A stretch of DNA of 64,000 nt from Octopus vulgaris (Eukaryota), in contig OX597814.1 in the NCBI GenBank assembly GCA_951406725.2, forward strand, positions 113,398,001 through 113,462,000. Reading direction: 5' to 3'. Positions within the stretch are counted from its first letter, which is position 1. Every line of letters begins with the position of its first letter. Positions 2,139-60,096 of the stretch are shown in pieces. Under the pieces are notes generated by a model. It saw nothing but the letters and a program-made list of their open reading frames with translations, did no database searches and was not told where the DNA came from. The translations under genes were made by a program, and so were the position numbers.

Positions 2139-2797
2139 ACTGATGACGGTGATTGAGATAGAAATACGTGTTCACGACTTTCCATTTATCTCCAAACAAT
2201 AAACTTGTCCTTTACCTTAATGCCATATCAACATTGGAAAATTCCTGATTCCTAAGTTTATCTCCCCTTCTCAAGCGGAACTGGTTATAACTGCTAATTT
2301 GGTAGTTATGACATACCCTCAGAGATCATTATAGCAAATCAAAAATTAATGTTGTATGATATTTGATATACCTACATTTGTCTGTGTTGTTTCAAATACA
2401 TGCCATTAGCCACTCTGTCTTATTTCTCTTACCTCATTTGTGCTTAGATTATGCAAATTACCCAAGCCATAAATCGTTCTCTTCCTTTTTGAATAAGTCT
2501 AAGTCCTTTGGCTACTGGGGATAAAGTCGGATAATTGTCGCGCTGGTATCGGCTATTGAGGTAGAAACACGTTCCGGAAACACGTGCAATGGCATGTCAG
2601 TTTTGGAGAATGCTTCAATCTTGAGATCATCTCCCTTGGTGGTCTTAATTATCAATTGGTAATTATAGTAAATCTGGAGTTGGAGATAATTTTAATAAAT
2701 CAAGAATTTTCGTTGAATGGTATTTGATATACAAGTTTCTATCGCTTGGTCGAATACGTATTTTAATTATTAGTACTCTCAAATTTATAACTGAAAT

Positions 2798-2871
2798 ACT
2801 ACACTGAAGACGGAAATAAGTGAGTAAAAATAAAATTTTACATCTCTTTAATCCAGAAACGCGTATGTGGT
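2798..2871 (+). ncRNA. Type I hammerhead ribozyme (family 1 element)
   Basis: ACUACA-CUGAAGA-(c)GGA..long stem II..UCC(a)-GAAAC-GC-GUA-UGUGGU; 6-bp stem I and palindromic ACGCGU stem III. Confidence 0.8.
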
Positions 2872-3147
2872 TGATCAAAGCCGGGTGGATTCGTTATTTT
2901 TTCTCTTTACCTACGTTAATTAAGAGTATTGCTGTCTAGGAGATATTTTGTGGTGGAGGAATAGTATTTAACTGCTATTCCTAAATTTCGGTATGTGATG
3001 AAGCAATTTGCTGCACCCTAATTGTAATTATGCTTATAATTATTGAGTTGTTGTACAAGGTTACCGATAATGGTTCTTTTAACATACCGAACTACTTGGT
3101 AAAATTATTAATTATTAATTAATTAATTTTACCCTTTATTATTATTG
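2798..3147 (+). mobile_element. HHR-containing non-autonomous retroelement, family 1 (5' limit uncertain)
   Basis: The HHR is followed about 280 nt later by the family tail ...CATACCGAACTACTTGGT...AATTAATTAATTTTACCCT, then a microsatellite. Confidence 0.75.
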
Positions 3148-3228
3148 ATAATATATGTGTGTGTGTGTGTGTGTATGTATATAAATATAAATATGTGTAT
3201 ATATATATATATATATAAATATGTGTAT

Positions 3229-3393: not shown

Positions 3394-3425
3394 TTTATTT
3401 TAAGCAGCAGAAAAATCAACAAAAT

Positions 3426-3463
3426 CTGTTACTCTGAGTTTCTCGTTGCCGTTCATCAGACAG
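3426..3463 (-). ncRNA. Minimal type I hammerhead ribozyme (mirror copy)
   Basis: Exact reverse complement of 3481-3518. Confidence 0.75.
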
Positions 3464-3480
3464 TTTTTGCTTAGCAAAAA

Positions 3481-3518
3481 CTGTCTGATGAACGGCAACG
3501 AGAAACTCAGAGTAACAG
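3481..3518 (+). ncRNA. Minimal type I hammerhead ribozyme
   Basis: CUGU-CUGAUGA-a-CG(GCAA)CG-a-GAAAC-UCAGA-GUA-ACAG; stem II is short and has a mismatched closing pair. Confidence 0.75.
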
Positions 3519-3622
3519 ATTTTGTTGATTTTTCTGCTGCTTAAAATAAAGCATATTACTCTACCACTGGTATTTGAGTACTCTTTTTTCCACCTTGTTT
3601 CACATTTATGTGTTTACTCCGG

Positions 3623-3655
<33 letters not shown>

Positions 3656-5509
3656 AGAGTGAGAAATTAGATATTCAATAAACATCGATTTTACACCAGT
3701 GGTCTAGCATATAAAAAACTGAAGGTTCAGTAAAATTGTATTATATACATATTAGAGGGAAACCTCTATGTATGTGTATATATATATATATGTATAAATG
3801 TAGAAGCTGGGCTTCTATACAAGTTCTATCTAAATTCCATTCATAAGGTATTAGACTAAAGCCTTCGCTGAAGACACCGTAAAGCGAGATGAAACTTAGG
3901 ACCATGCGATAAAGAGATGCGATGAGACTTTCAGAGCCACATAAACCCTGCTGGTGATCATTGTATTATAATTGATTAGCGTTATAGTTAATTACGACAA
4001 CTGATTAGGAACATTATAGTTAATTAGATCAACCGATTAACTTCATAGTTAATCAGAAAAAAAACACGGTTTTTATCTTGTTTTAAATTGTCGCCAGTTT
4101 TTTTTTAAGTAGCTGTTTTCTTCACATATCAGATTCATGTGTTCTGGTTGCAGTTACAGAAGAAGGGTTGCCAAGTAGAACACGATCAACCCGCCACCCC
4201 TCTTAGCTTTCGACAGCACCCCAAGAGGCGCCTGGCAATATAAGATAGGGGAGGGCTTGGGATAGTAAAACAAGGAATACTATCACTGACAAATTGATTC
4301 AGAGCTGCTTGAAGTTTCTTTGGGAGGTCAGCACAATGGTATTAGAAACTTATTCTCTGCCTTTATTCAACGCCTTTGCCGTCGTCCAACTCCTGGTAAC
4401 CCCTGCCGTTTATAACAAATTAAATAAATAAATAAAAAGAGACGGGACTGAGTGTTCTATGGCGATCATTTTCAGCTAAACCCCAACGGACTGTTAATGA
4501 TATACTGTGTATATATGTGTGTGTGTGTATGTATGTGTATGTGTGTATAGAATGTATGAAGGTGTGTGTCTGTGCATGTATGTATGTATGTATGTATGTA
4601 TGTATGTATGTATGTATGTATGTATGTGTGTATATGTGTTTGTGTGTATGTGCGTATGTATGTGTGAATGTGTGTATGTATGTGCGTGTGTATGTGTGTA
4701 TGTATATATGTGTTTTGTATATGCATGCATGTGTTTGTGTGTATCTATGTATGTATGCATATTTGTATGTGTGTATGTGTTTGAGTGTATACATGTATGT
4801 GTGTATGTATGTGTGTGTATGTACGTGTATGTATGTATATGTGTGTGTATATATGCATGTATGTGTGTGTATGTATGTATGTGTGTGTATGTATATATGT
4901 TTGCATATGTGTGTATTTATGTATGTATGTATAAGATTTTTTTTTAGCTTTATAAAAAAGAGAAAAATATATGTATGCATGTGCATGTGTGTGGATGTGT
5001 GTGTTTTGTCGGCTCGGTGCCATAGTAGAAGAGACTCGGGTAAGGTGTCACACAATTGGACTGAACCCAAAGCATAGGATTGGAAATCCACGCCTGCGTC
5101 TGTATAAGCATCCACCTTCTTCCTTGCTGGTCGTGTGACGACAGGGTTGCTTGCGTCAGCCAGGGTTAGAAAAGGACCTGCTTCTGAATGAAATAAATTA
5201 GCTGTTTACCCTTGGTTTCAGAGAAAGCAACAGGGTTACCTTTGAAACCAGGGATTGGCAACTTTAGTCGAAAAAATCGACACCAGTACTCATTCTTTGT
5301 AAGCCTAGTACTTATTATATCGGTCTCTTTTGCCGAACCGCTTAGTTATGGGAACGTAAACATACCAGCATCAGTTGTCAAGCGATGCTGGAGGACAAAC
5401 ACAGACACACAAATATATACACACACGTCTCAAAGACAGGTCAATTCCTCCGATATTTTGTAAATTCTTAAATATATCTCCTTCTATGTGTGTATATATA
5501 TATATATAT

Positions 5510-5556
<47 letters not shown>

Positions 5557-6169
5557 CCTAAAAAAAACATGATTTTTATTGAACTCATAATACTTTTTGT
5601 TGAGTACTTTCTTAAATAGTTTCTTGTAAACAGTTTTTAACATTTTCTTATTATTATCAAAGAATGTATAACTGTATTTTAATACTTTTCTGAAAACCAG
5701 TACTTAACACAACAAAGCTCAAACAAAGCTTTATATTTTACTTGTGACAATCTTTTTCTAAAAAAGTGAAACCGGTCAACTCAATAAATTGTGAGTGGAT
5801 TTGGTAAACGGAAACTGAAAGAAACCCGTTGTATATGTAACGAAGATGTACAGGTGTCAATGTAAAAGTGTCAATTCAATGAATTGACACCTGTATATCT
5901 TTGTTACTTATTTATATTTTGTTGACCTAACTTGGAATCTGCACTTCGGAAATACTATAGAAAGTACCTTTATATAAAAAGTACACGTCTGAATTACCAA
6001 GAGCGGATATCTTCACTTAGCTGGGTTGAGTTGTCTGCACACACGACAGTAATATTAAGAAATAGAGATAAATCAATTACTAATTATATTTATTAATTAC
6101 AAAAATAGACATAATCCCTAACAGCTGTTTCATGAGTATCTATCCATCTATCTATCTATCTATCTCTAG

Positions 6170-6353
6170 GGGTATGAGTGGCTGTGTGGTGGCGCAGAAG
6201 TGGTTGTATGGTAAGTAGTATGCTTCCCATCCATATGGTTCCGGGTTCAGTCTCACTGCGTTGCACCTTGGGCAAGTGTCTTCTATTACAGCTTCGGACC
6301 GACCACAGCCTCATGAGTGGATTTGGTAGAGGGAAACTGAACGAAGCCTGTCG

Positions 6354-6394
<41 letters not shown>

Positions 6395-6602
6395 ACACAT
6401 GTGTATCTGTTTGTCCCACCACCATCGCTTGACACCCGGTACTGGTGTATTTATGTCCCCGTAGCTTAGCGGTTCGGCAAAAAAGAGCGATAGATTGAGT
6501 AGTAGGCTTACAAAGAATAAGTCCTGGGGTTGATTTGTTCGACGAAAGGCGGTGCTACAGTATGGCCGCAGTCAAATGACAAACAGGTAAAAGAATAAAA
6601 GA
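6170..6602 (+). mobile_element. tRNA-headed CORE-like SINE, family B, with internal microsatellite
   Basis: A/B-box-like TGGCTGTGTGG and GGTTCAGTC, CCTTGGGCAAGTGTCTT core, 3' ...GGCCGCAGTCAAATGAC; more than 15 copies in the window. Confidence 0.85.
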
Positions 6603-7043
6603 ATATATATGTGTATATATTCCTCCCCACAACTACGAAACTCTACAAAATGATTAAATTCCTCACAAAGGAATTAATTTGATTTGAAAACCCCACTAGA
6701 ATGGGAGAAAGCGCTAATAATCTGAATGATATGATCTGAATGATATGATATATATATGTAAAAAATGTAATATATAAATAAATATCTATAAATATGAACC
6801 ATCTGATCTTCTGATTACCCCATTTCTTCTAATATATATATATATATATGACCAGTGAACAGTAATTGATGAAACCGGTATGACTTTGAATCTCTTTAAC
6901 AATTCATAATAATGACTTTTATTCCTCTTAATTCTACCTCAGTTCATCTAATTGTAGTTATTTATCGCTACTTTTCATAAAAAAGACTTTATTAATTTTT
7001 TTTATATTCAATATGCATTTTCGCTTTTTTATTCTTACTTTCC

Positions 7044-7081
<38 letters not shown>

Positions 7082-7086
<5 letters not shown>

Positions 7087-7957
7087 TGAGGGTAAAATTA
7101 ATTAATTAATCAATTTCACCGAGTGTTCAGTATGTAAAAGGACCATTTAAGGTGAATTCAAAATATTACATTATATAATTAGGGCTTAGTAAAATAAATT
7201 ACTTTGCCACATACTGAACTAAGTAGAAATAGCAGCCAAAAAATTTTTTTAGCCATTTCTACAACTTAAAGAAAATTTCTCTCAGATAATGTTTACTCTA
7301 GACAGCTCACGGAGGTTTTGAGGTAAATACAGAAAAATATCACAAGTACATAGATCGTTTGAGTACGTCAACGTTTCAAGATTAGCCAAATAAAATCAGC
7401 ATTTCTTTCGTCAGCTCAAAATTTCTTAATTTGGATTTGGAAACACTAAAAAGAAGGAACTTTACCTATCAACGAACTTGTCGCTTCAGATGAACCACTC
7501 CAACTAACAGTGTCAACAAGTTCAAAATGCGCAGGCGTAAATCTCTGCACTCCCCTTCCACCCACGTGGTCTATCTAGCAAACATTATATTTTAACCGCG
7601 AGAACCGAGGCAGTATGACAGAGAGAAATGAATTATAATATCAACAATTGAGGGTAAAATTAATTAATTAATCAATTTCACCGAGTGTTCAGTATGTAAA
7701 AGGACCATTTAAGGTGAATTCAAAATATTACATTATATAATTAGGGCTTAGTAAAATAAATTACTTTGCCACATACTGAACTAAGTAGAAATAGCAGCCA
7801 AAAAAATTTTTTTAGCCATTTCTACAACTTAAAGAAAATTTCTCTCAGATAATGTTTACTCTAGACAGCTCACGGAGGTTTTGAGGTAAATACAGAAAAA
7901 TATCACAAGTACATAGATCGTTTGAGTACGTCAACGTTTCAAGATTAGCCAAATAAA

Positions 7958-7959
<2 letters not shown>
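7082..7959 (-). mobile_element. Family 1 HHR element: about 1.56 tandem copies of a ~562-bp unit inside (TA)n
   Basis: 7082-7396 is repeated almost identically at 7644-7959; no significant ORF; flanked by (TA)n. Confidence 0.9.
7358..7420 (-). ncRNA. Type I hammerhead ribozyme
   Basis: UUUGAG-CUGACGA-AAGA..UCUU-GAAAC-GUUGAC-GUA-CUCAAA; perfect 6-bp stem I and 4-bp stem II base. Confidence 0.88.
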
Positions 7960-7995
<36 letters not shown>

Positions 7996-8001
7996 GTATA
8001 T

Positions 8002-8056
<55 letters not shown>

Positions 8057-8207
8057 TACGCATATATATACATATATATGTATATATACGTGTATATATA
8101 CACATACACACGCATATATGTGCAGAGAAACATAAAGATAGTGGAGGAAAGAGAGTGAGTGTGAGTGAGTGAGTGAGTGAGTGAGTGAGTGAGTGAGTGA
8201 GGGGGAA

Positions 8208-8278
<71 letters not shown>

Positions 8279-8691
8279 CTCGGACCACACAAGGCCTCTG
8301 CTGTCGACACTTTGGAATGACCTGTAAATACCATTAGCAAAGAACTTAAAAGGAAAACAGCGGAATCATCTGGAAGCGAAACTTAGTTCTCTATGGCCGA
8401 CCGCCATTTAATTGTGAATTATATGCTTTTTGAGGGTAAATGAAAAAGAAAAACAAACATTTAATTTGATATCAAACACCGCTTCTGTTGCAGCGACTAC
8501 TAACCCGCAATCTACCGGCTGGTGTTCGCGCTGAGGTTGCTCTGCTTGATGTTTTTGTTATTGTTCTTGTTGTTGTTTATTGGTGTTGTGGATGTTATTT
8601 TTTTTGTGTTTTGTTTTGTTTTGTAAAGAAAAATTTCTCTGCTACGCTTCTATGTACTTCGTTCATTCAGAGACACTGCTGCTGCTGCTTC

Positions 8692-8727
<36 letters not shown>

Positions 8728-8765
8728 CACCACCACCACCACCACCACCACCACCACCTCCATTG

Positions 8766-8811
<46 letters not shown>

Positions 8812-9284
8812 CACCACCTCCATTGCTACTACTACTACTACTACTACTACTACTATGACGACGACGACGACGAGATGACGACGACGACGACCACCACCAC
8901 CACCACCACCACCACCACCACTACTATTACTAAAAGGTTCACCGTCTGATCGAAGATTATTCATGGGGATACAGTCATTTCTGTATCCTGTAAACATTGA
9001 TGATAATGATGATGATGATGTTGATGATGGTAATGATGATGCTGGTGATGTGACGGTGATGGTGGTGATGATGATGATGATGATGATGATGATAGCGATG
9101 ACAATGATGATGACGACGATGATGAGGATGATGGATCACGACTACGAAATCGATATCGATCGTGATGATGACGAGAAAAACGGGGATTTTCAGATTTTAT
9201 TCACGTCCAAGCATTTTGGAGAAGACGAAGAAGAAGAAGAAGAAGAAGAAGAAGAAGAAGAAGAAGAAGAAGAAGAAGAAGAAG

Positions 9285-9317
<33 letters not shown>

Positions 9318-10193
9318 AACTAAAAGAAGCGAAACGATTTAAATCTAAAAATAAATTCCTTCCCCCACCCCGTGAACTATTGGTGCGAATCTCTCCGTGG
9401 GTGGTGGTGGCGAGAGGGGGCAGAATGTAAACATCAAACAAATTTAGAATAAGGAACCGTAGCTTCTAAGAATCCCCGTTAATTAGTCCCCTACCACCAC
9501 CCACCCATCACTACCACCTACCCATCACTAACACCATCGCAACCACCACCACCACCACCACCACCAATTTGGTATTTTGTGAGGCAGAAACAATAATAAA
9601 CGACACTTAATATTTGGTGTCAATAATAAAAAAAGTAAAAACCGAAAAAGCTGAAGAGCTCTTTTACAGTAGGTTTACCATTTGGGAACCGACACGGGCC
9701 CACGAGGGGAAGGGCTCTACATGGTCGATCAGTGTGCTAGAGATAGGAGTTATGTTTGCATAAAATCGTGCACTACTTTCTTAAAAAATAAAGGTAGGAC
9801 GCATAAAATATTAAATCTAATCCAACATAACCTTAGATGACATGATGGCCCCGGTTGGAAAGTATTGTTTATAGGCCTGCCGGATCAGGGCTAATCTTTT
9901 TGGCATGGGAATAAACAACAACAACACCAACAACAACTACAGAAATCGATGGCGCATGAACTTAGGATTGTATTATGTATTGAATCCTTCCTTTCTGATG
10001 ACAGTAATGTTGGCTATGACGGAGATTTGGCTGATGTTTCTAGCACTCCAAGATATCACCTTTAGGATTCCGTCATCGGTTGAGAGAAACCTAAACCTCA
10101 ATCAGTGCTACTTTTAGAAATGCCATCGCTGCTACCAGCACCACCAGCATCACCAACAACATCACCACCACCACCACCACCACCACCACCACC

Positions 10194-10229
<36 letters not shown>

Positions 10230-10899
10230 TCACCACCACCACCAACAACATCACCACCACCAGCAACAACATCACCACCACCAGCAATAACAACAATACC
10301 TCCATTTCCACCATCCCCCCACCACCACTACCAACAACAACAACAAAACCTCCAGCAGCAGCAGCAGCAGCAGCACCACCACCACCACCACCACCACCAC
10401 CATCGCTACTATTAGCACCGCCGCCAGTGGTGGTGGCAACAATACCATACGCTGTGATGGCGAAAAGCTTCAATATATAACAACAATTTTATTTTATGGA
10501 AGATGTGTTTGACCCATGGTTAATTCAAATCAAGCAGATTTATGAGCATGGCCGTTCCAGCAGTGGCAATATGGGTTACGACTGTCAGTAGGCTGAATGT
10601 TCACATAGTGGCTCCGATTTTGTGATGCTCCAGCTTGGTTTGAACCGCGATGAATAAAACTAAATAACATTACTTATGATAACGTTTCGACCTCTAGGAA
10701 AGATTGACCATCGACAGTTTAGTCTTTTTGCTGTGAAGGGGCTTGGTCTAGTGGCTACTGTATCAGCTAACGATCATAAGGTCACAGTTTCAATTCCTGA
10801 ACCAGCCAGACGCATTGTGTCCTTGGGCAAGGTACGTCATTCAACGTTGGCCCAGTTTACTAAGCTGTAAATGTGCACCAACCGCATGCTTTTGAGGAA

Positions 10900-11240
10900 A
10901 CGAGGAAGTCGATTACAACTGGTACTTATTTTTATTGACCCCGAAAGGCTGAAAGGCAAAATCGACCTCGGCGGAATTTGAGCTCAGAACATAAAGACGG
11001 GCGAAATGGCGCTAAGCATTTTGTCCGGCGCGCTAACAATTCTGCCAGGTCATTGCCCTTTGAAAATATTCTTTTTTACTCTTGGCACAAGGCCCGAAAT
11101 TTTTGAGGAGGTGGGGCCAGTCAATTAGATCGACCCCTGTACGTAATTGGTGCTTAATTTATTGACCTCGAAAGGATGAAAGGCAAAGTCGAACTCGGTG
11201 GAATTTGAACTCAGAACGTAACGGCAGACGAAATACCGTT
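10900..11240 (-). mobile_element. Two adjacent family A SINEs
   Basis: GACCCCGAAAGG(A/C)TGAAAGGCAAA...GGAATTTGA(A/G)CTCAGAAC occurs twice. Confidence 0.8.
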
Positions 11241-11779
11241 ATGTACCTACTGTAAAACTTGTAACTCCACTACGACAGGGATAGATTCAGAGAGGAATAG
11301 GGGGATGCACCCCACCCCTACCAACCAAGAAACTTTTCAAGTTTGTTTTGTTTAAAGATGCAAAGAATATTTTTACATTAGCAACAAACAACCCTTGAAG
11401 GGTTCAATATAAAAACGAATGTTTTCAGTATCTCTGGACATATTACACTGTCATTTCATTGATCAATTGCAATGATTCAGACCTCAGACCCACCTACTCC
11501 ACCCCTATCACAAATTTCTGGATCCACTCCTGCACTACAATACTCCAGTTCGAATATTCACTATTCGGCCTAGCAGTGATTTTTATTTTCACGTGTTTCG
11601 TCAGAAAGGTTCTTGGCTAATTAATAGTGTTTCAGTTCACACAAGTGGACAGGGCTACAGCTGCTGCTGTATTTTAAGATTTTGGTAGTATTGTATGTAG
11701 ACTCATACAGCACTTTTTTTTTTGCCTCAATCAAAGAAAAAAAAACTAAACTCCACAACAGGAAATTTATTGTGAGAAA

Positions 11780-12147
11780 TACCACATGGTTCCGGGTTCA
11801 TTCCCACTGCGTGGCTCCTTGGGCAAGTGTCTCCTACTATAGCCTCGGGCCGGCCAAAACCTTGTGAGATTCGGTAGACGGAAACTGAAAGAAGCCCGTC
11901 GTATATATGTATATATATATATGTATGTGTATATATGTTTGTGTGTCTGTGTTTGTCCCCCAGCATCGCTTGACAACCGATGCTGGTGTGTTTACGTTCC
12001 CGTAACTTAGCGGTTCGGTAAAACAGACCGATAGAATAAGTACTAGGCTTATAAAGAATAAGTCCTGGAGTCAATTTACTCGACGAAAGACGGTGCACCA
12101 GTATGGCCGCAGTCAAATGAGTGAAACAAGGAAAAGAGCAAAGAGTT

Positions 12148-12184
<37 letters not shown>

Positions 12185-12629
12185 GTATGTGCGTGTCTTT
12201 GCGTCTGTTTTTGTCCCTCCAACGTTTGACAATCAATGTTGGCGTGTTTATGTCCCCGAAACCTATCGATTCGGCAGAAGAGACCGATAGAATAAGTACT
12301 AGGCTTACAAAGAATAAGTCCTGGGGTTGATTTGATCGACTAAAGGTGCTCCAGCGTGGCTGCATTCAAATTAATTATTAATTGTTACGATGTGAATATC
12401 TAATATTTTTAATAGGCATGCCTTTGCGACTATTAAAGTTTCAAAGTGTTTAGTTAAAACAAAAATTAATTAAAAGAATCTGGCCGTCAAATTGAATAGA
12501 TCCATTCTTTGTAAGCCTAGTACTTATTCTATCGGTGTCTTTTGCCGAACCGCTAAGTTTCGGGGATGTAAAACACCAACATCGGTTGTCGAGTGATGAT
12601 GGGAGGACAAACACAGACACAGACACACA

Positions 12630-12666
<37 letters not shown>

Positions 12667-12745
12667 TAGGTTTCTTTCAGTTTCCGTCTACCAATTCCAC
12701 TCACAAGGCTACCGTCGGCCCCCGAGGCTATAGTGAAAGACACCG
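11780..12745. mobile_element. Cluster of family B SINE copies (two on +, one on -)
   Basis: Matches the 6170-6602 and 26395-26795 copies. Confidence 0.8.
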
Positions 12746-13534
12746 CAGTGTCTTCTTACCGCTGAGCTACGCCTTTGCGCGTTGTGTATACGCGTAGGTA
12801 TGTTTGTGTGTGTGAATGTGAGCGTGTGCGCCTGTGTGTGCGCGAGTGTTTGTATTTGCAAGTGTGTGTGTGTGTGAGTGTGTGTGTGTGTGAGTGTGTG
12901 TAAGCTAAAAGAATTTACATCAATCAAAAGAATACGACATGTATATGCGTGTCTGTTTGTATGTATATATATATGTATGTGTGTGTGTGTGTATGTATTA
13001 TATATAAATGTATGTATGTATATATATATGTAACACATATATCTGTTTGAGTGTTTATACGTGTGTGTGTGTATGTGTGTGTATGTGTGTGTGTGTGTGT
13101 GCATGTGTGTGAAACACTGTTGCCATGACCTCTATTTAGCACATCCTTTATGGTCTATGGTTGTGGAACGTCAAGGCTGCAACGCTTCACTGCTACCATT
13201 TTTTGTTTTACTTGTTTCTGATTACTTTTTTCTTAAATTTTGTTTTATTTTCTCTTCTCTTCCCTTATCTTTGCCAATTTTTCTCTTCTCTACCGTTCCA
13301 TCAATGGCGAACATTTTGAAGACGACGGCACGATATCGAAGACCCATGCTGAGAAGGTCAAGTTATTCCTGTTCTGGTTGAAAGAGAAAAACAAACAAAT
13401 AATAAATAATAAATAAATAAATAAATACGTGGAGTTTGCCCACTCCACGGTAACCCTAACACCCTACAAAATCCCACTCAACCCTTAATTTTTTTATTTT
13501 GAAATATTCTACTCCTATAATTGCTTCTCTGCGG

Positions 13535-13878
13535 TTAGACCATCCGTCGTTGTCGACGATGATCATTGGAGAAGACGTGGCACGGGGTATCCAGCTGTAA
13601 CGGATCAGTGCTATGCGTGTTCGAATGGCACTGGTGGCTTGTTGGGACTAAAGGCAAGGATTTGGGGCTCTGGGCTTGTTTGGTTCACGTTTTCTTTATG
13701 CCCTTGCAATCTTGTTCAGTTCGTAGGAGGTGGCACATCGCCAGGCAGGTTGGTTTTGTGCTTGCGTTTTCCAGGTGTTGGGGTTGATGTCAATGCTCTC
13801 CAGGGAAGCTTTCAGTGTGTCCTTGAAGCGCTTTTTTCTGTCCACCTTGTGTGCGCTTGCCTTCCGCCAGTTCCCTGT
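13535..13878 (-). pseudogene. Decayed RTE-clade LINE 3' end
   Basis: Minus-strand translation GGQKK.RFKDTLKASLESIDINPNTWE...AWR, typical of the RTE ORF C-terminal region; disrupted by stops and frameshifts. Confidence 0.7.
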
Positions 13879-13964
13879 GGTATGCTAACACGAATATTAA
13901 TAATCTGAGTTGTTACAAGAACTACATTAATGGAATGGAATTGATTTTGGTAAAATTACATTGG

Positions 13965-14215
13965 TGGAGGCGCGTGGCTTAGTGGTTAAGGTGTCAGTAT
14001 CATGATCGTAAGATTGTGGTTTCAATTCCTGGACCGGGCGACGCGTTGTGTTCTTGAGCAAAATACTTCATTTCACGTTGCTGCAGTCCACTCAGTTGGC
14101 AAAAATGAGTAAGGCTGCGATGGACTGGCGTCCCGTCCAGCTGGGGAACACATACGCCATAGAAACCGGGAAACCGGGCCCATGAGCCTGGCTAGGTTTT
14201 AAAAGGGCGCATTTA
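13965..14215 (+). mobile_element. tRNA-headed SINE, family C-like
   Basis: GGAGGCGCGTGGCTTAGTGGTTA...GGTTTCAATTCC head; related copies at 43755 and 57830. Confidence 0.8.
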
Positions 14216-15257
14216 TTTTTTATTTTTTAAATTACAATGAATTCTAATTTTGATTCATTGCAGAGAGGTACTGGCAGCGAGCTGCAAGTGCTGGTCGTTA
14301 GTGCGTCGGACAATATGCTTAGCGGCATTTCCTCCGGCTTTTTAATATTCTGAGTTCGAATACTGCCGAGGTCGAGTTGATCTTTCATTCCCCAGGAAAT
14401 AAAATAAGTACACAGGATTTTATTTGGGGACCAGATGAAGCAAGAAACATAGATCAAGACAGATTAGTCCAACATCGAGGATTCGCTAGAACCAAACCCT
14501 GAGAGATGTTCCGTGAAAGTGAAATAAAATAAACTAGCACTAAATGAATGATGGTGTCCCAGTATGGCCATATACCTTGGCTGAAACAAGTAAAAATAAT
14601 AAGAATTTTCTAAAACATCATGATCAGCGATTAATTAATAAATTAACTTTAATTAGAATGCTTGAGAGAATATTAATAATAATCCTTTTTATTATAGGTA
14701 CAAAGCCTGATGTTTTGTGGGAGAAGAGAATCGATTATAATGATCTCAGTACTAGATTTGTGCTTAATTTATCTGCCCCAAAACGATGAGAAGCAATGTC
14801 GGCCTCGATGGGATTCTAGCTATGAACAACAACAAAAAAAAAACGGAGGAAATACTTCTAAGTATTTTGTCCGACGCGTTAACGTTCCTGTCAGCTCGCA
14901 GCTTTAACAGCAACAACAACAACAACAAAAACAACAACAACAACAATCCATTCTACTATAGGCACAAAGCCTGAAATGTTGGCTGGAGGGGTCAGTCGAT
15001 TACATTAACCCCATTGCTGTAAGTGGTTTTTATTTCATCGACCCTGAAATAGTAAAAGGCAAGGTCGACCTCGGCGGAATCTGAACACAGATTTTAAAGA
15101 CGGATAAATAGTACTAAGTGTTTTATCCGGCGGGCTAACCAATCTACTGGCGATGAAAGTATCGCGAGGGGAGAGGTCATTGTGCCTATAATAAACTTAC
15201 GCTCTGATTTTTTTTCAGGTCGTGGGTAGAGAGAGTATGATATAGATGGGGTCACAA

Positions 15258-15640
15258 GGCGGCGAGCTGGCAGAAACTTTAGCACGCGGTATTTCGTCTG
15301 CCGTTACGTTCTGAGTTCAAATTCCGCCGAGATCGACTTTGCCTTTCATCCTTTCGGGGTCGATAAATTAAGTACCAGTTACGCACTGGGGTCGATATAA
15401 TCGACTTAATCCGTTTGTCTGTCTTTGTTTGTCCTCTCTGTATTTAGTTCCTTGTGGGTAGTAAAGAAATAGGTATTTCGTCTACTGCTACGTTTTGAGT
15501 TCAAATTCCGCTTACATTGACTTTGCCTTTCATCCTTTCGGGGTCGATTAGATAAGTACCAGTTACGCACTGGTTCGATCTAATCGACTAGGCCCCCTCC
15601 CGCCAAATTTCGGGCCTTCTGTCTAAAGTAGAAAAGGATA
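15258..15640 (+). mobile_element. Family A SINE with internally duplicated body
   Basis: The GAGTTCAAATTCCG...GGGGTCGAT block occurs twice. Confidence 0.85.
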
Positions 15641-15682
15641 CTGATGTGGTCGCAAATGTCAACGAAAGGACTTTTGACAAAA

Positions 15683-15929
15683 CTTTTCCTTTTGATGGAC
15701 GGAATTTTCTAGTTAACTAAACAATTTGAAACTTCGTATACTGGTAGAATGGGTCAAAAGAAAACATTATTGTAAACAAAATTGAAAACAAAATTGTAAT
15801 TTGTAAGTTTAACGTAGTTTAATTCTTCGAAGAATTAAACTACATTGTTTTCTTTTGACACATTCTACCAGTATACGACGCTTCAAATTGTTTAGTTAAC
15901 TAGAAAATTCCGTCCATCAAAAGGAAAAG
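15683..15929. mobile_element. Foldback MITE with ~85-bp terminal inverted repeats
   Basis: CTTTTCCTTTTGATGGACGGAATTTTCTAGTTAACTAAACAATTTGAA... is mirrored by ...TTCAAATTGTTTAGTTAACTAGAAAATTCCGTCCATCAAAAGGAAAAG. Confidence 0.8.
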
Positions 15930-16434
15930 ATCCAACTAGCCGATTGACTGATCGAAAGATTTATGAAAAAATCGATTAGTTAATTGGTTAAATAATTAAC
16001 CAATTGACAAAAAGAAATATTAATAAACTGAAATAGAACCAGTGCATGTGTTTATTATTAGCAACATGACCGTTCCGAGATACAACAATAATTTATGCTT
16101 CACCACATGAGTTCCCATTAGGAATCTAACGAATAAAGTAGGACAGAAAAAAGTTATGCTCCCTCTTATACTTATATCCCCGACTTGCTGGTCAAAGATG
16201 AAGTCCCTAGGGGCTGCCCCTGTCAACGATCTGTCTGGATTGTGAAGTAGTGATAAGATTTATTGTCATGTTTCAGAGGAAGGATTTTTACGTGAAATGG
16301 CCAGAACACGACAACTGTATCGGAGTTAGTTGTTTGACCGCAGAGAAGGGAATGTAAGAGAGTGTAACACTATACAATGCGTGAGTGAGTGTGTGTGTGT
16401 ATGTGTGTGTGTGAGAGAGAAAGACAGAGAGAGA

Positions 16435-16473
<39 letters not shown>

Positions 16474-16877
16474 GGTGGATTGATGGATAGATGTATGTAT
16501 GTGTGTATATCTGTCTGTCTATCTTTATGTATGGGTGGATGGATGGATAGATTTGTGTACGTATATGTGTCTGTTTGTCTGTATGTATGGGTGGACGGAT
16601 AGATGAATGTGTGTGTATGTATGCATGTATGTATGTATGTGTGTATGTATGTGTGTATGTATGTATGTGTGTATGTATGTATGTATGCATGTTTGTATGG
16701 CTGGATGTCATTCAGTTTTATTTCTTGCCAAGTGAGAAAGAACCGGTTTCTAACCTGGATTCAAAGCGCCTTCATTGGAATTTAAACATGAACAGGACAT
16801 TTTTGTATGTATGTATGTATGTATGTATGTATGTATGTATGTATGTATGTATGTATGTATGTATGTATGTATGTATG

Positions 16878-17217
16878 TGACAGGCCATGCTTTTCTTTTG
16901 CTGAGCTCAAATCTCATTTGCGAACCCATGGAAAATGAACCTCCACCAACTATTCTGCTTATGTGTCTGTGCACACATTTCAATGCAATGTAAGCCAGAA
17001 GGTCTGCAAATCTAACGGACGCCTCGAAAGACATTTTAAGATCCACAAAGATCAGAACTTATCTGCAACTCTTGGTGGTCCAAAACGGATATGCAATCTA
17101 TGTGGGTGTCTTTTCAAAACATTGTCTGGTATAGAAAGCTACATCAGATGCCATGATGGTTCCAAGGTGTAGGCACGGGAGGAGGTCAAACTTTGCATAA
17201 GGAGTAGACAATCACCA
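16878..17217 (+). pseudogene. Decayed C2H2 zinc-finger fragment, probably an RTE-like LINE 3' end, in (TATG)n
   Basis: [23 protein letters not shown]...CNLCGCLFKTLSGIESYIRCH; flanked by (TATG)n like the element at 39712. Confidence 0.6.
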
Positions 17218-17935
17218 TGTATGTATGTATGTATGTATGTATGTATGTATGTATGTATGTATGTATGTATGTATGTATGTGCGTATGTATGTATGTGTGC
17301 AGATTTGTAAGTTTTGTTTTATGTATGTATTCTCATGCATATAGTTGCATATCTAAACATGTTCATATATATTTAAATGAAAAACTTCTGGAAAGTTCTA
17401 CAGATTTTTACAGTTCCTGTGATAGATTGGATCTCTAGTCTTCGAATCAGCTTTCTCCTTTCTGATTTTGAGAAGCCTAATTTCTCAAGATTGGTATTTA
17501 GGCAATATGTTACATATCCTAGGGCCTCCAATAATTACAGGTATAAACCCGAACTTGTAATCTGAATAGAGTAACTGCAGATTTCTCAATAGTTCAGCAC
17601 AAGTGTTCTCTTTTTGACGGATCTTCAGTTTTATGTATGTATGTATGTATGTATGTATGTATGTATGTATGTTTATGTATGCTTATGGATATGTACATAT
17701 GTATTTGTGTATGGATGGATAGATGAAGGAATGTGTACGTATGTTGTATGTATATATATACAGACTTATACGTGTGTGTGTCTATAGATCTGTACGTGTG
17801 TGAGTGTATATATATATATATATATATAAAGTTAATCCAAACATGAAAACACAAAGAGAAAACACAACAACGCGAGGTCGTGGAACAAATATAGTATTAT
17901 TGGACGCTCAGGAAGGAAGGAAGGGAAGAAGGAGG

Positions 17936-17970
17936 GTTTTACGTTTCGAGCGGAGCTCTTCGTCAGAAAC
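17936..17970 (-). ncRNA. Minimal type I hammerhead ribozyme (family 3, element about 17828-18040)
   Basis: GUUU-CUGACGA-A-GAGC(UCC)GCUC-GAAAC-GUA-AAAC; loopless ACGU stem III. Confidence 0.85.
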
Positions 17971-18722
17971 ATGGGAAAAGGAAAGATTCAGAGAAGGGTA
18001 GACAGAGGAAAAAAAATCGCCAACGGTACACACGCGGTCACATATATGTACATATGTATATATGAATATATATACACGCAATGTATGCGTTTATATGAGC
18101 GCATGTATGTGGATGTGCTGTAACAAGTTTGTTTCCCAACCACACCGTTCCGGGATCAGTCCCACTGCGTGGCAGCTTGTGACTGAATTTCGTAAATGGA
18201 AACTGAGAGAAGCCCGTCATACACACACACAGACACACGCACAAATATATATCTGTGCGTGTGTCTATGTTTGTCCGCCACCATTGCTTGACAGCGATGT
18301 TGGTGTGCTTTCGTCCTCGTAACCTAGCGAGTCGGCAAAAGAAATCGATAGAATTAGTACCAAGCTTTAAAAAGAAAAAAGTACTGAGTTGGATTTGTCC
18401 GATTAATATTCTTCAAGGCGGTGCCCCAGCATGGCCGCAGTCTAATGACAAACAAATAAAAGATTAAGGGGAAAAGTGTATGTGAAAGAGAGAGAGAGAG
18501 GAAGAGAGAAACAGGGAGAGAGAGAAAGAGGAAAAGAGAAACAGAGAGAGAGAGAAGAGAGAAACAAGGAGAGAGAGAGGAAGAGAGAAGGAGGAAGAGA
18601 GAGAGAGAAAAAGAGGAAGCGAGAGAGAGAGAGGAAGAGAGAAACAGGGAGAGAAAGAAAGAGAGAAAGAGAGAAACAGGGAAAGAGAGAGGAAGAGAGA
18701 CACAGGGAGAGAAAGAGCGAGA

Positions 18723-18786
<64 letters not shown>

Positions 18787-19187
18787 AAGGGAGAGCGGGA
18801 AACAATTCTTCAGTTCTGGAAACTTCAAAGTGTTTAATCATCTCCAGCCATGACTACTCTTTTACGGTGATTCTGCCTTTAAAACATTCCCCTAATTATG
18901 TTTGACAGAGGCGAATCCTATAAAATACTCCGTCCTGATAAGAGATTAGCGACCATTTGACAAAAATGACAATATAAATAAAAAATACAAAAATAAGAAG
19001 AAAGCCACAAACCAGTGTTTAAGATTTGCTCATCAATATTCCGCTGACATTTTTGATGAATGAGGTTAAATTTGGTTGAAATTGATGCTTAAGAAAGACA
19101 AAAAATATAGAAGAAAACGACCAACGACAAATGTATACACGTATACATACATACATACATACATATATACATACATACATACATACA

Positions 19188-22439: not shown

Positions 22440-22850
22440 CTTATTTCTTTACTGCCCACAAGGGGCTATACACAGAGGGGACAAACAAGGACAGACAAAC
22501 GGATTAAGTCGATTATATCGACCCCAGTGCGTAACTGGTACTTATTTAATCGAACCCGAAAGGATGAAAGGCAAAGTCGACCTCGGCGGAATTTGAACTC
22601 AGAACGTAGCGGCACACGAAATACCTATTTCTTTACTACCCACAAGGGGCTACACACAGAAGTGACAAACAAGGACAGACAAACGGATTAAGTCGATTAC
22701 ATCGACCCCAGTGCGTAACTGGTATTTATTTAATCGACCCCGAAAGGATGAAAGGCAGAGTCGACCTCGGCGGAATTTGAACTCAGAACGTAACGGTAGA
22801 CGAAATACGGCTACGCATTTCGCCCGGCGCGCAAACGTTTCTGCCAGCTC
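22440..22850 (-). mobile_element. Family A SINE, dimeric body
   Basis: Two ~180-bp tandem units; another copy at 23170-23400(+). Confidence 0.85.
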
Positions 22851-25238: not shown

Positions 25239-25296
<58 letters not shown>

Positions 25297-25299
<3 letters not shown>

Positions 25300-25483
25300 T
25301 AATACTAAGCAATTAAGGGTTTAGCAACGAATTGCCTTACCACACACCGAATTTAGGTTGCTAAACCCTTAATTGCTTAGTATTACTTAAATTTTCCTCG
25401 AATGAGGCTTTTACATGCCGAAGACTACTTGGTGTAATTGATAATTGTTCCAAATTAATTAATTTCACCCTTCATTGTTACTC
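25297..25483 (+). mobile_element. Family 1 3'-tail-only insertion with 5' inversion
   Basis: AAGTAATACTAAGCAATTAAGGGTTTAGCAAC / GTTGCTAAACCCTTAATTGCTTAGTATTACTT inverted arms, then family tail AATTAATTAATTTCACCCT; lies in (TA)n. Confidence 0.75.
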
Positions 25484-25502
25484 ATATATATATATATATA
25501 GT

Positions 25503-27865: not shown

Positions 27866-29037
27866 TAGGTGTATGTCTATATCAGTTAATATGTTGAAGT
27901 TTATAAAATCACAAGTTTTTAGGGCAGTGGACCCGCCCTGAAATCTGAAGACGGGTATTATAATCTACCCTGATGTGGGTCGCGTTGGAAGAAATAATGG
28001 TTCTTCGTACTATGGAAGGGTAAATGGTATTTGAGTAAGAATAAGTAAAATGGCGCTTCGATTTGTGAGTCAAAGAGAGTAAGGTTAAGGAGTGCGTATG
28101 TATGTGTGTACGTATGTATGTATGTATGTATGTATGTATGTATGTATTTATGTATGTATGTATGTATGTATGTATGTATGTATGTATGTATGCATGTATG
28201 TATGTATATATGTATGTATGTATTTATGCATGTATGTATGTATGTATGCATGTATGTATTATGTATCTCTTCTCTCTGAATCTATCATCTATCAATCTAC
28301 CTACCTACCTACCTACCTACCTACCTACCTACCTATATGTCTGTCTATCTGTCTGTCTGTCTGTCCCTCTCTCTCTGTCTCTCTGTCTCTCTCTTTCTGT
28401 TCTGTATATAGACAAATTGGCAACTGATTTTCTGGGACACCTCTGATGAAACTCCAATAAAAATTGAAAATCGATTGAAGCAGTTCATCATTTATTGAAT
28501 CTACGGAGAAATACTTGAATTTGCTATGTACGTTTACCCCCCCCCCCACACACACACTCATATAGGTTTATATTTGTCTATTGCTTTCTTCTATAGGCAC
28601 AAGGCCTGAAGTTTTAGAGGATTCCATCCATCTCAGGGCTCCAGTGGTACTTAGCTTATTGACCCCGACAGGATGAAAAGTAAAATCGACTTCAACGGAA
28701 TTTGAAATCAAAAAGTAAAGATGGACGAACTACCACTAAACATTTTGCCCGGCGTGCACCAAACATAGAAAAAGAAACGAAAAATGAAAAAAAAAAGATT
28801 CGACTAAAATTCTTCACGGCGGTGCCCCAGCATGAACGCAGTCTACTGACTCAAACAAGTAAAAGAAAGAGATGGGCGCCTGTTAGAGGCCTGCGAAACT
28901 TTAAGTCGCATAAAACCGAACCAAGCTTTTTAAAAATGCTACATATAACTGCTACTATACATATATATATATGAGCGTGCGTATGTATGTATGTATGTAT
29001 GTATGTATGTATGTATGTATGTATGTATGTATGTATG

Positions 29038-29084
<47 letters not shown>

Positions 29085-29116
29085 TTTATTTAAAGCAGCA
29101 GAAAATTCAACAAAAC

Positions 29117-29154
29117 CTGTTACTCTGAGTTTCCCGTTGCCGTTCGTCGGACAG
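29117..29154 (-). ncRNA. Hammerhead-like motif with CCGACGA core (family 2, element 29084-29168)
   Basis: CUGU-CCGACGA-a-CG(GCAA)CG-g-GAAAC-UCAGA-GUA-ACAG; homologous to 3393-3471. Confidence 0.65.
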
Positions 29155-29165
29155 TTTTTGCTAGA

Positions 29166-29210
<45 letters not shown>

Positions 29211-29607: not shown

Positions 29608-29653
<46 letters not shown>

Positions 29654-29664
29654 TATATAGAAGG

Positions 29665-29715
29665 AGCTTCTACAGGACTAGTACTGTTTCATTCAAGAGA
29701 AATCTTCAGGAAGCT
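29665..29715 (-). ncRNA. Type I hammerhead ribozyme (mirror copy)
   Basis: Reverse complement of 30305-30355. Confidence 0.85.
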
Positions 29716-30304
29716 ATTTAACAAGAATTGTATTAGCATTTATACATTTAGGCAGGTTTAAAGGAGTGGTGGTGGGGGACTTTTTGGGGGTAGGCATAGC
29801 GCAAAATATCATACTTGGGGGAGTGGTCAAGGAGTCAGTGGTAAGTTAGATGAAAGAATAGATAAATAAAGAAATAAAAAAATAAAAAAATAAAAAAATA
29901 AAAAAAAAAAAAAAAAAAAATAAAAAGATAAAATAAAAGAATAAAAAAATAAAAAATATAAAAAATATATATAAAAAAATATATATATAAAATATATATA
30001 TAAAAAAATATATATATAAAAAAAGGGGGGATAGAGTTATAGGTAAATAAGGAGATTCTCACTTATACCTATACACACATGTATACGTATCTACACACAC
30101 ATACACACATACACATATATATACACACACATATATATATATATATATATTTATTTATCTATTCTTTCATCTAACTTACCACTGACTCCTTGACCACTCC
30201 CCCAAGTATGATATTTTGCGCTATGCCTACCCCCAAAAAGTCCCCCACCACCACTCCTTTAAACCTGCCTAAATGTATAAATGCTAATACAATTCTTGTT
30301 AAAT

Positions 30305-30355
30305 AGCTTCCTGAAGATTTCTCTTGAATGAAACAGTACTAGTCCTGTAGAAGCT
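30305..30355 (+). ncRNA. Type I hammerhead ribozyme with a full stem III
   Basis: AGCUUC-CUGAAGA-uUUC(UCUU)GAAu-GAA-ACAG(UACUAGUC)CUGU-A-GAAGCU. Confidence 0.85.
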
Positions 30356-30438
30356 CCTTCTATATAATAAATTAATTTTACTCTGCTATGTATTGAGTAC
30401 CTTACTTACTGTGGTTAACCCCGAATCAACCCGGGACC

Positions 30439-37763: not shown

Positions 37764-37815
37764 GGACACAGAAAAAACAAGGAGAGATACAAGGAGAGAA
37801 AAATGTGTGTAGTGG

Positions 37816-37866
<51 letters not shown>

Positions 37867-37869
37867 CAC

Positions 37870-42904: not shown

Positions 42905-43032
42905 TATAATAATAAAGGGTAAAATTAATTAATTAATTAATAATTAATAATTTTACCAAGTAGTTCGGTATGTTAAAAGAACCATTATCGGTAAATTTAT
43001 ACAAAAATTCTATAATTATGAGTATAATTATA
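42905..43032 (-). mobile_element. Family 1 3'-tail fragment
   Basis: Close reverse-complement match to about 3030-3145. Confidence 0.8.
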
Positions 43033-43189
43033 ATACTCATAATTATAGAATTTTTATACACACACACACACATGCACACACACACATATATATATATACA
43101 TATAGTACATATATATACGTAAAAACTAATATATATATATACATACATACATATACATATACCTACTACATGTATATACGTAAAAACTG

Positions 43190-58822: not shown

Positions 58823-58876
<54 letters not shown>

Positions 58877-59056
58877 TTTATAATTAGGGTTCAGCAAAGA
58901 TTTGCTTTACTACATACCGAAGTTTAGAGATAGCAGTCGAAAAACCTTAGCTATTTCTTCTACTTTAAAAAGGGACTCCCAGAAAAACCAAAATACTTGA
59001 AAACAATCTACGCAGGCAGAGAGGAAAAATAACGAAAATCAATCCATATCTGGTCA

Positions 59057-59141
59057 CCCATGTACGCGCGTTTCGGAATTAGATTGGTATAAAGAATATA
59101 GAATTATACTTTACCCAACCATTTTCGTTCATCAGCATGGG
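59057..59141 (-). ncRNA. Type I hammerhead ribozyme
   Basis: CCCAUG-CUGAUGA-a..long imperfect stem II..-GAAAC-GCGC-GUA-CAUGGG. Confidence 0.85.
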
Positions 59142-59671
59142 ATTCCAACAATATTAAATATTAAATATTAAATTCGAAGGCACTGGAAGAATTGAATATA
59201 TCTCTCCATCTAACGGTATCAGACAGATCATATTCAGTGTTAGTGCCGCCGAATTCGAAATGTGAATGAGGTTCATCACCTTCCCCTGCCCATCAGCGCA
59301 TGTCGTCAAATAAGATACTACAGAAAAAAACTGTAGTTTATTATCAGGGAGAAAAATTCCATTATCAATAATAACAAAGGGTAAAATTAATTAATTAAGA
59401 AGTAATCAATAATTTCACCAAGTAGAATTCGGCATGAAAAAAGACTATTTCACGGTAAACTTAAGAAATACTTTATAATTAGGGTTCAGCAAAGATTTGC
59501 TTTACTACATACCGAAGTTTAGATATAGCAATCAAAAAACTTAGCTATTTCTTCTACTTTAAAAAGGGACTAACACTGAATATGATCTGTCTGATACCGT
59601 TAGGTGGAGAGATATATTCAATCCTTCCAGTGCCTTCGAATTTAATATTTAATATTTAATATTGTTGGAGT

Positions 59672-59756
59672 CCTATGCTGATGAACGAAAATGGTTGGGT
59701 AAAGTATAATTCTATATTCTTTATACCGATCTAATTCCGAAACGCGCGTACATGGG
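59672..59756 (+). ncRNA. Type I hammerhead ribozyme (inverted copy)
   Basis: CCUAUG-CUGAUGA...GAAAC-GCGC-GUA-CAUGGG; the C>U change in stem I leaves a G-U pair. Confidence 0.85.
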
Positions 59757-60033
59757 TGACCAGATATGGATTGATTTTCGTTATTTTTCTTCTCTGCCTG
59801 CGTAGATTGTTTTCAAGTATTTTGGTTTTTCTGGGAGTCCCTTTTTAAAGTAGAAGAAATAGGTAAGGTTTTTCGACTGCTATTTCTAAACTTCGGTATG
59901 TAGTAAAGCAAATCTTTGCTGAACCCTAATTATAAAGTATTACTTAAGTTTACCTTGAACTGGTCTTTTTTCATGCCGAATTCTACTTGGTGAAATTATT
60001 GATTACTTCTTAATTAATTAATTTGACCCTTTG

Positions 60034-60096
<63 letters not shown>

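Follow-up and report, generated by a model that had tools for sequence, protein, structure and literature searches.

A copy of a non-coding hammerhead repeat unit in the octopus genome, likely a non-LTR retrozyme mobilized in trans by a Penelope-like enzyme

We analyzed a window of 64,000 nucleotides of Octopus vulgaris DNA (positions 113398001-113462000 of contig OX597814.1; the genome assembly spans 2.8 Gb in 227 contigs), in which an initial annotation had described three diverged members of a ribozyme-bearing family. The window is rich in microsatellites, which dominated whole-window repeat finding, and it holds five insertions of the family, more than average. These insertions, belonging to subfamilies denoted e1 to e4, and the parts of the first of them are as follows.

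2743..3155, plus strand: e1 copy, 5′-truncated, with the last ~50 nt of the spacer, the ribozyme, the rod arm and the 3′ domain, followed by (TG)n and (TA)n (BLAST to e1 monomers 85-89%; HMM 2741-3134, E 3.5e-74)
2792..2877, plus strand: extended type I hammerhead, predicted cleavage after 2865; helix I 2798-2803/2866-2871, 3x3 internal loop, 3-bp extension 2792-2794/2875-2877
within 2792..2877, plus strand: ribozyme core of the e1 copy, with CUGAAGA at 2804-2810, helix II with an internal loop and a long distal stem, and GAAAC-GC-GUA
2878..2935 (approximate), plus strand: 3′ arm of a predicted long rod whose other arm lies in the spacer 5′ of the ribozyme (from circular folds and an alignment fold of 14 full monomers)
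2957..2982, plus strand: hairpin P1, start of the conserved 3′ domain
2987..3091, plus strand: helix P2 (2987-2995/3083-3091), closing a loop with P3, site A and P4
2997-3017, plus strand: hairpin P3, degraded in this copy
~3043-3056 in e1 coordinates, plus strand: short-end site A, unused by this copy
3063-3074, plus strand: small hairpin P4
3098..3155, plus strand: hairpin P5 (3098-3133), then long-end site B ~15-20 nt on, where the copy meets the microsatellite
7071..7959, minus strand: e2 partial tandem of 1.55 units with a 562-nt period, bordered by (TA)n on each side; the ribozyme is at 7420-7358 and the overlapping units are 99.7% identical
25296..25493, both strands: minimal e4 back-to-back insertion flanked by (TA)n on each side, its minus arm running to site A and its plus arm to site B
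42906..43034, minus strand: short 5′-truncated e1 copy ending at site B
58873..60037, both strands: e3 insertion of two back-to-back arms with 97.6% identity, one on the minus strand (59571-58873, 1.2 units, ending at site A) and one on the plus strand (59566-60037, ending at site B)

Three type I hammerhead cores were confirmed, at 2798-2871 (plus), at 7420-7358 (minus) and at 59.1 kb (minus)/59.7 kb (plus); a geometry scan returned the motif at 2804-2865 (plus) and 7414-7364 (minus), and a targeted search the third. The stem III inserts of the three members read as it had given them, and the long stem II that it had noted corresponded to inserts of 45, 30 and ~54 nt. Its stem I strands are also as written, but CCCAUG/CAUGGG belongs to the minus copy at 59.1 kb, which ends 187 nt past the cleavage site, and the copy that extends to the far end carries CCUAUG/CAUGGG instead. 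The three elements aligned as homologs over their whole length. The reported spacing of 280-290 nt to the 3′ end was correct, as the distance from the cleavage site to the end of ACCCT was 270, 275 and 280 nt with a further ~10-20 nt to the microsatellite, but the unit does not stop at this "3′ end" and runs on for ~270-310 nt to the next ribozyme. Likewise, the conserved 3′ blocks and two extra copies were found, while the copy at 25297-25483, thought to be a plain tail, consists of two short back-to-back arms, 25356-25296 (minus) and 25357-25493 (plus). The full monomer, the tandem arrays and a second start had been missed.

Several other repeats share the window. Another hammerhead family occurs as a back-to-back pair at 29648-29884 (minus) and 30136-30372+ (plus), whose members are 98% alike, have (TA)n outside and a 14-nt palindromic stem III, and end differently by a tail. 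A third family is represented by a perfect fold-back at 3395-3550 with two hammerhead-like motifs in opposite orientation, at 3459 (minus) and 3485 (plus), and recurs at ~29085-29170 and in L350, one of the genomic regions (prefixed L) retrieved elsewhere. Hammerhead-like motifs of further kinds lie at 42148-42115 (minus), ~17975 (minus) and 44995-44882 (minus), the last of which may be a chance occurrence. A broken LINE-like RT fragment, its translation judged by eye, occupies 37813-38864 (plus); 28851-29000 (minus) was listed alongside it and a SINE-like repeat, which is present in many copies in the window (e.g., 22442-22808).

The family is built from a non-coding unit that is repeated in tandem and contains a type I hammerhead in each repeat, as in non-LTR retrozymes. 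Monomers taken from tandem copies measured 536-563 nt in e1, mostly 560-566 nt in e2 and 578-602 nt in e3, and those of e4, e5 and e6 were mostly 600-602, 561-564 and 554-556 nt, with a GC content of 32-37%. Five further subfamilies were found outside the window, e4-e6 being followed by searches and two more known from single copies. The six monomers e1-e6 are collinear with 55-68% identity between subfamilies (in this comparison the e4 row started with an inverted piece), and copies within a subfamily are 88-98% identical. In each of the six subfamilies with full monomers the unit closes head to tail, and their spacers are homologous; arrays of at least three units occur in e2, e5 and e6, and arrays of 3-5 units exist. 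In 37 e1-e3 monomers the longest stop-free frame spanned 42-116 codons, and an ORF for RT and GIY-YIG was absent from the unit; terminal repeats distinct from the unit were not seen in the loci read.

First-look searches of the genome gave 2,200-2,600 candidates per window member, and evenly spaced regions amounting to 400 kb contained 3 insertions versus 0 in the reversed control. Scaled from these 3, the whole genome would hold about 20,000 insertions, with a wide margin of ~4,000-60,000. The lineage may be wider than eight subfamilies. Distant hammerhead repeats were noticed at L287:100-430, L126:830-530 (minus), L249:1434-740 (minus) and L136 ~5250-5470 (oriented strand); a GCTATT block is retained in L287 and L126, as is a hairpin preceding (TA)n, and the repeat in L249 has a period of ~494 nt.

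Units within one locus often shared non-majority letters, at 127/258 for e2 and 164/317 for e5, compared with 883/12492 and 714/9559, respectively, between loci. Such sharing was 3.5-7.5 times commoner within a locus than between loci, in inverted arms as well as in tandem units, which is consistent with a single template or source locus for each insertion. RNA editing was considered and rejected, since the sense strand had no excess of A>G over T>C (181 vs 222 among rare variants; 55 vs 59 among variants shared within loci). Contigs of four sequencing runs guessed to be RNA covered most of an e2 unit, and contigs of this kind cannot reveal strand, ends or circles.

The ribozyme has the core CUGANGA / GAAA / UH and three helices, and is open at helix I. 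The fold is an extended one: helix I has 6 bp and is followed by a conserved 3x3 internal loop and then by an extension of 3 bp that covaries, and helix II is broken by a conserved internal loop and continues into a distal stem of variable length. Across 19 copies from eight subfamilies, 18/20 named pairs change on both sides, and 92.8% of the alignment cells were paired versus 22-40% in slid controls, counts that describe subfamily patterns and not all copies, because for e1-e6 the rows came from copies whose core was intact and whose helix I had 5-6 pairs (90/116 qualified; 108/116 had 5-6 helix I pairs). The compensatory changes across the eight subfamilies include a conversion of C3-G8 to U3-A8 in the core; in e6 the core is mostly of the U3-A8 form, reading UUGAUAA in 14/21 and UUGAUGA in 5/21.

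The initial annotation had stated that all stems covary. We evaluated this with one majority row per subfamily, permuting the 3′ strands among the eight subfamilies, a design that preserves relatedness within each strand; with the three window subfamilies only, the floor of the test would be 1 of 6. The observed pairing was reached in 4/40320 permutations for helix I, 2/40320 for its extension, and 24/40320 and 1/40320 for two parts of helix II. The claim therefore holds for these helices, but not for stem III, which barely covaries (10080/40320), nor for the 3′ helix formed by UUCGGUAUG and CAUACCGAA. Stem III varies in length and sequence and yet stays self-complementary in the six subfamilies assessed, with duplex energies of -8.8 to -13.3 kcal/mol in five and -2.8 kcal/mol in e8.

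The helix II position adjoining the core (10.1-11.1) was mismatched in 14/19 rows, and the next pair was G-C or A-U; cleavage may be slow because of this mismatch. A search of 2740-3150 against Rfam at E values up to 10 detected no hammerhead, and for the whole window the matches listed (150 of 202) contained only microsatellite-driven miRNA matches. Since the fold has been kept through 30-45% divergence, some function of it must be needed. The data support selection on the ribozyme fold; catalysis, on which the initial annotation had proposed selection, is a prediction.

The ~180-nt 3′ domain P1-P5 is the most conserved part of the unit, with a mean identity between subfamilies of 75% versus 54-57% elsewhere. 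Its sense-strand folds beat shuffled sequences with z scores of -3.5 to -6.5, and the antisense strand scored equally well in 2/7 sequences. The initial annotation had pointed out that the blocks UUCGGUAUG and CAUACCGAA are complementary, and they are indeed predicted to pair as helix P2 in each of the seven single-sequence folds as well as in the alignment fold. Of the 9 P2 pairs, 5 are invariant, 2 show wobble variation and 1 has changed on both sides; with six subfamilies, the observed pairing was reached in 120/720 permutations for P2 alone and in 12/720 for P2, P3 and P5 together. P4 was paired in just 71% of cells. These data indicated conserved complementarity with modest covariation. 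A structured RT-recognition element had been proposed for this region; conservation, the folds against shuffles and the location of both copying starts within it support the structure, and the recognition role is a conjecture, because no Penelope ORF carrying the tail was found.

The alignment fold of 14 monomers predicted a long rod formed by the spacer and the sequence that follows the cleavage site; 52/130 pairs of this fold changed on both sides overall (a count without a control). The spacer arm of the rod is mostly missing from the truncated e1 copy at 2743-3155. A CACGTG block in the spacer was considered as a promoter box and rejected, as it pairs within the predicted rod.

Copies of the family end at two points in the 3′ domain. 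Among 198 TA-flanked 3′ ends, site B accounted for 116 and site A for 70; the other 12 included 5 at a shifted e1 site A. This A:B ratio means little because the queries favored B for e1-e5 and A for e6. Site A lies a median of 16 nt past P3, within the loop that P2 closes, and site B a median of 15 nt past P5; the two starts are ~190 and 285 nt past the cleavage site. Subfamily e1 has an insertion after P3, and its short end is 26-39 nt past P3, whereas this distance is 11-22 nt for most copies of the other subfamilies; e1 nevertheless keeps an A-to-B tail of about 95-100 nt. The 3′ end seen earlier corresponds to a start of copying within the unit, with another start ~95-100 nt upstream of it. 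A rule that both starts fall 10-20 nt after a hairpin closed by GGN/NCC is a lead only, because it fits B and five subfamilies at A, and not e1 at A.

Inverted insertions combine the two ends, as do both examples in the window (58873-60037 and 25296-25493). Of 49 diverging pairs at (TA)n, in which the query had selected one arm only, 29 were clearly A/B, 20 were incompletely classified but compatible, and 0 were clearly A/A or B/B; one further locus converged. The junctions between arms (n = 63) overlapped by 1-5 nt in 26, were flush in 5 and had a gap in 32, and were not informative. With tail-only queries, 25/30 e5 copies passed the cleavage site and 0 stopped there, and 14 e4 copies passed it, 3 stopped within 13 nt of it and 13 stopped earlier. 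The template is accordingly either a circle or an uncleaved multimer, because most of these copies run past the cleavage site.

The family bears the footprint of Penelope-like mobilization: partial tandems, an adjoining inverted copy, a one-sided tail and an AT-rich target. The genome contains many young elements with an RT, a CxxxxCxxC finger and GIY-YIG, called Neptune-type here because of a linker finger such as that described in PMC8557442. We sampled about eleven autonomous families (16 clusters, some of which are fragments) by a GIY-YIG family search and three protein searches of the octopus genome, each scoring the best 150 of 5,400-18,800 first-look candidates, and 60 longer regions were screened with DNA profiles and a ribozyme covariance model. 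Autonomous GIY-YIG elements in L342, L344, L351 and L352 had paired short and long ends at (TA)n in back-to-back arms, 35-45 nt apart.

None of the roughly eleven sampled families carries the ribozyme or the tail as its own end, and a tail adjoining a Penelope RT ORF, the arrangement that the initial annotation had suggested looking for, was found in continuous form in none of them. A PLE protein match lay near 11/180 family loci, and in the 7 of these 11 that were read it was never continuous with the copy; every co-occurrence with a PLE ORF that was read was separated by (TA)n or unrelated DNA. Inspection by eye of the ends of the sampled autonomous families revealed no counterparts of the hairpins that precede sites A and B. 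Partner candidates in L135, L136, L138, L263, L266, L286, L346 and L357 were rejected as separate insertions across (TA)n or other DNA (the letter-by-letter reading covered the candidates other than L240, L268 and L098). We therefore infer the enzyme from the scar and not from sequence held in common with an autonomous element.

Other features of these loci were recorded in passing. Different elements are stacked in one (TA)n site in L138:4000-6500, L135, L053, L161 and L203, and nested insertions of this kind mimic a partner relationship. The young autonomous Penelope-like families of L121-L129, L342-L346 and L351-L354 have open frames of 781 to 859 codons and hammerhead-like motifs with U3-A8 cores, one of them with GCAAC instead of GAAAC; promoter-like repeats, TGACGTC and GATTGGTC, follow the 781-codon ORF.

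The unit, its homology across subfamilies, the tandem and inverted layout, the two ends, the target and the pairing patterns were observed in the copies themselves. The stretch at 2743-3155 is a copy of a non-coding unit of 540-600 nt with a predicted hammerhead, whose copies terminate at one or the other of two fixed points of the 3′ domain, and it is likely a non-LTR retrozyme moved at (TA)n in trans by a Penelope-like, probably Neptune-type, RT-endonuclease. The family is old, widespread and protein-free, a known kind of element with an unusually clear anatomy. In the cycle that we propose, a tandem locus would be transcribed, two ribozyme copies would pair through the self-complementary stem III and excise a monomer, and the long rod would keep the monomer ends together for circularization. 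A Penelope-like enzyme could then bind the P1-P5 domain, the candidate binding site, and nick both strands of a (TA)n site. Reverse transcription would begin at internal positions of the RNA, with one strand priming at site B and the other at site A, and copying would pass the cleavage site, often for more than one round, after which the two cDNAs would be joined back to back or just one arm would survive.

The main rival keeps the same enzyme and the two starts and takes an uncleaved linear tandem transcript as the template, with the ribozyme as a weak or occasional accessory and no need for a circle. We consider it less probable than the circular template, and still a serious contender. Copies that read through the cleavage site, the mismatch at the base of helix II in 14/19 rows and the arrays of 3-5 units available for transcription all suit it, as does the finding that unprocessed RNA is the main substrate for an anole element (PMC11167929), and the sharing of letters within loci fits an uncleaved tandem transcript as well as a circle. 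However, helix I, its extension, helix II and the 3-8 pair have been kept through 30-45% divergence, the rod flanking the ribozyme would be predicted to hold the ends of a cut monomer, and the animal retrozymes tested in PMC7229834 make circles.

It appears improbable that the repeats are terminal-repeat fragments shed by an unsampled autonomous Penelope-like family and not a self-standing lineage. Xenopus retrozymes do match PLE pseudo-LTRs (10.64898/2026.07.22.740005), and our protein searches each scored the best 150 of 5,400-18,800 candidates, which leaves room for such a family. Against this, the unit closes head to tail in all six full-monomer subfamilies with a spacer homologous across them, and no ORF was continuous with any family copy read. 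A LINE-dependent SINE-like repeat or a satellite, with the inversions arising by ordinary twin priming or recombination, is very improbable: microsatellite-flanked ends and 5′ truncation occur with LINE partners too and LINE fragments are present in the window, but the copies have no poly(A) or repeat tail of their own and stop within a unit that continues, the outer ends of inverted insertions are both fixed and different, and the arms diverge from a central junction as in autonomous PLE loci.

Returning to a retrozyme served by a Penelope-like enzyme, we tentatively suggest, as a possibility that we hold to be less than even, that this is a long-lived retrozyme lineage which has no terminal sequence in common with autonomous host elements and recruits the enzyme through its own 180-nt RNA fold; this fold would set two starts ~95-100 nt apart, one per nicked strand, on a single circular template. 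If this were true, the eight diverged subfamilies would map the RNA structure read by a Penelope RT and would provide a compact, protein-free handle for two-strand insertion at (TA)n. For the RNA features recognized by Penelope-like RTs and the return of retrozymes to genomes, one element has been studied in vitro, and the link between retrozymes and PLEs has so far been based on co-occurrence and terminal-repeat similarity. The family is a natural mutational series, with eight subfamilies, a 180-nt domain, two mapped starts and strict pairing of ends, and the recognition element and the two-strand priming model are therefore directly testable.

The comparison with known systems draws on the available parts of the cited sources. 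Non-LTR retrozymes whose circles have been demonstrated are known from coral, mussel and axolotl (PMC7229834), and a 2026 preprint regards non-LTR retrozymes, mainly of vertebrates, as non-autonomous PLE derivatives and reports that 8/9 Xenopus retrozyme dimers failed to cleave (10.64898/2026.07.22.740005). An element from anole has two internal RT starts in a stem-loop, both target strands are cut and a protein dimer is predicted, and ribozyme mutants were without effect on insertion in vitro (PMC11167929). PLE tails with paired short and long ends have been described (PMC8557442), and copying of more than a unit from a circle has been proposed (PMC4209133). A literature search, with Repbase, Dfam and most subscription journals outside its scope, found no paper on cephalopod retrozymes or on paired fixed ends in retrozymes.

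Like the metazoan non-LTR retrozymes of PMC7229834 and 10.64898/2026.07.22.740005, the octopus family is non-coding and low in GC with one type I hammerhead per unit, ranges from monomers to multimers, is predicted to be highly self-paired and resides in a genome rich in Penelope-like elements. Its unit of 540-600 nt is longer than the 170-400-nt invertebrate circles (PMC7229834) and within the range of 51-972 (10.64898/2026.07.22.740005). It differs from known retrozymes in retaining a single fold across at least eight subfamilies of 55-68% identity, and in its two fixed ends and A/B back-to-back insertions, which the available text of those two sources does not describe for retrozymes. Circles and cleavage have been demonstrated for the retrozymes of these studies, whereas the octopus family is known from sequence alone.

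With PLEs (PMC8557442, PMC11167929) the family has in common partial tandems, an adjoining inverted 5′-truncated copy, a tail at one end and an AT-rich or (TA)n target, as well as starts inside the RNA near a stem-loop downstream of the hammerhead (PMC11167929). Unlike PLEs, it has no ORF, and its tail is ~95-100 nt versus 30-40 nt in the available print descriptions and 35-45 nt in the autonomous families of this genome. Its ribozyme resembles PLE-associated hammerheads (PMC4209133) in the palindromic stem III fit for dimer cleavage, the extra nucleotide after position 9, the U3-A8 variant, the many compensatory changes and the occurrence of opposite-strand pairs a few hundred bases apart. 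In contrast to the minimal ribozymes of that class (PMC4209133), it is extended, with a full 6-bp helix I, a 3x3 loop, a covarying extension, and a helix II with a loop and a long distal stem. Covariation of the ribozyme is expected for the class of hammerhead retrozymes, and the added value lies in a series of eight subfamilies that outlines a candidate recognition domain with two starts; because the kind of element is already known, the gain offered by the family is one of resolution and not of category.
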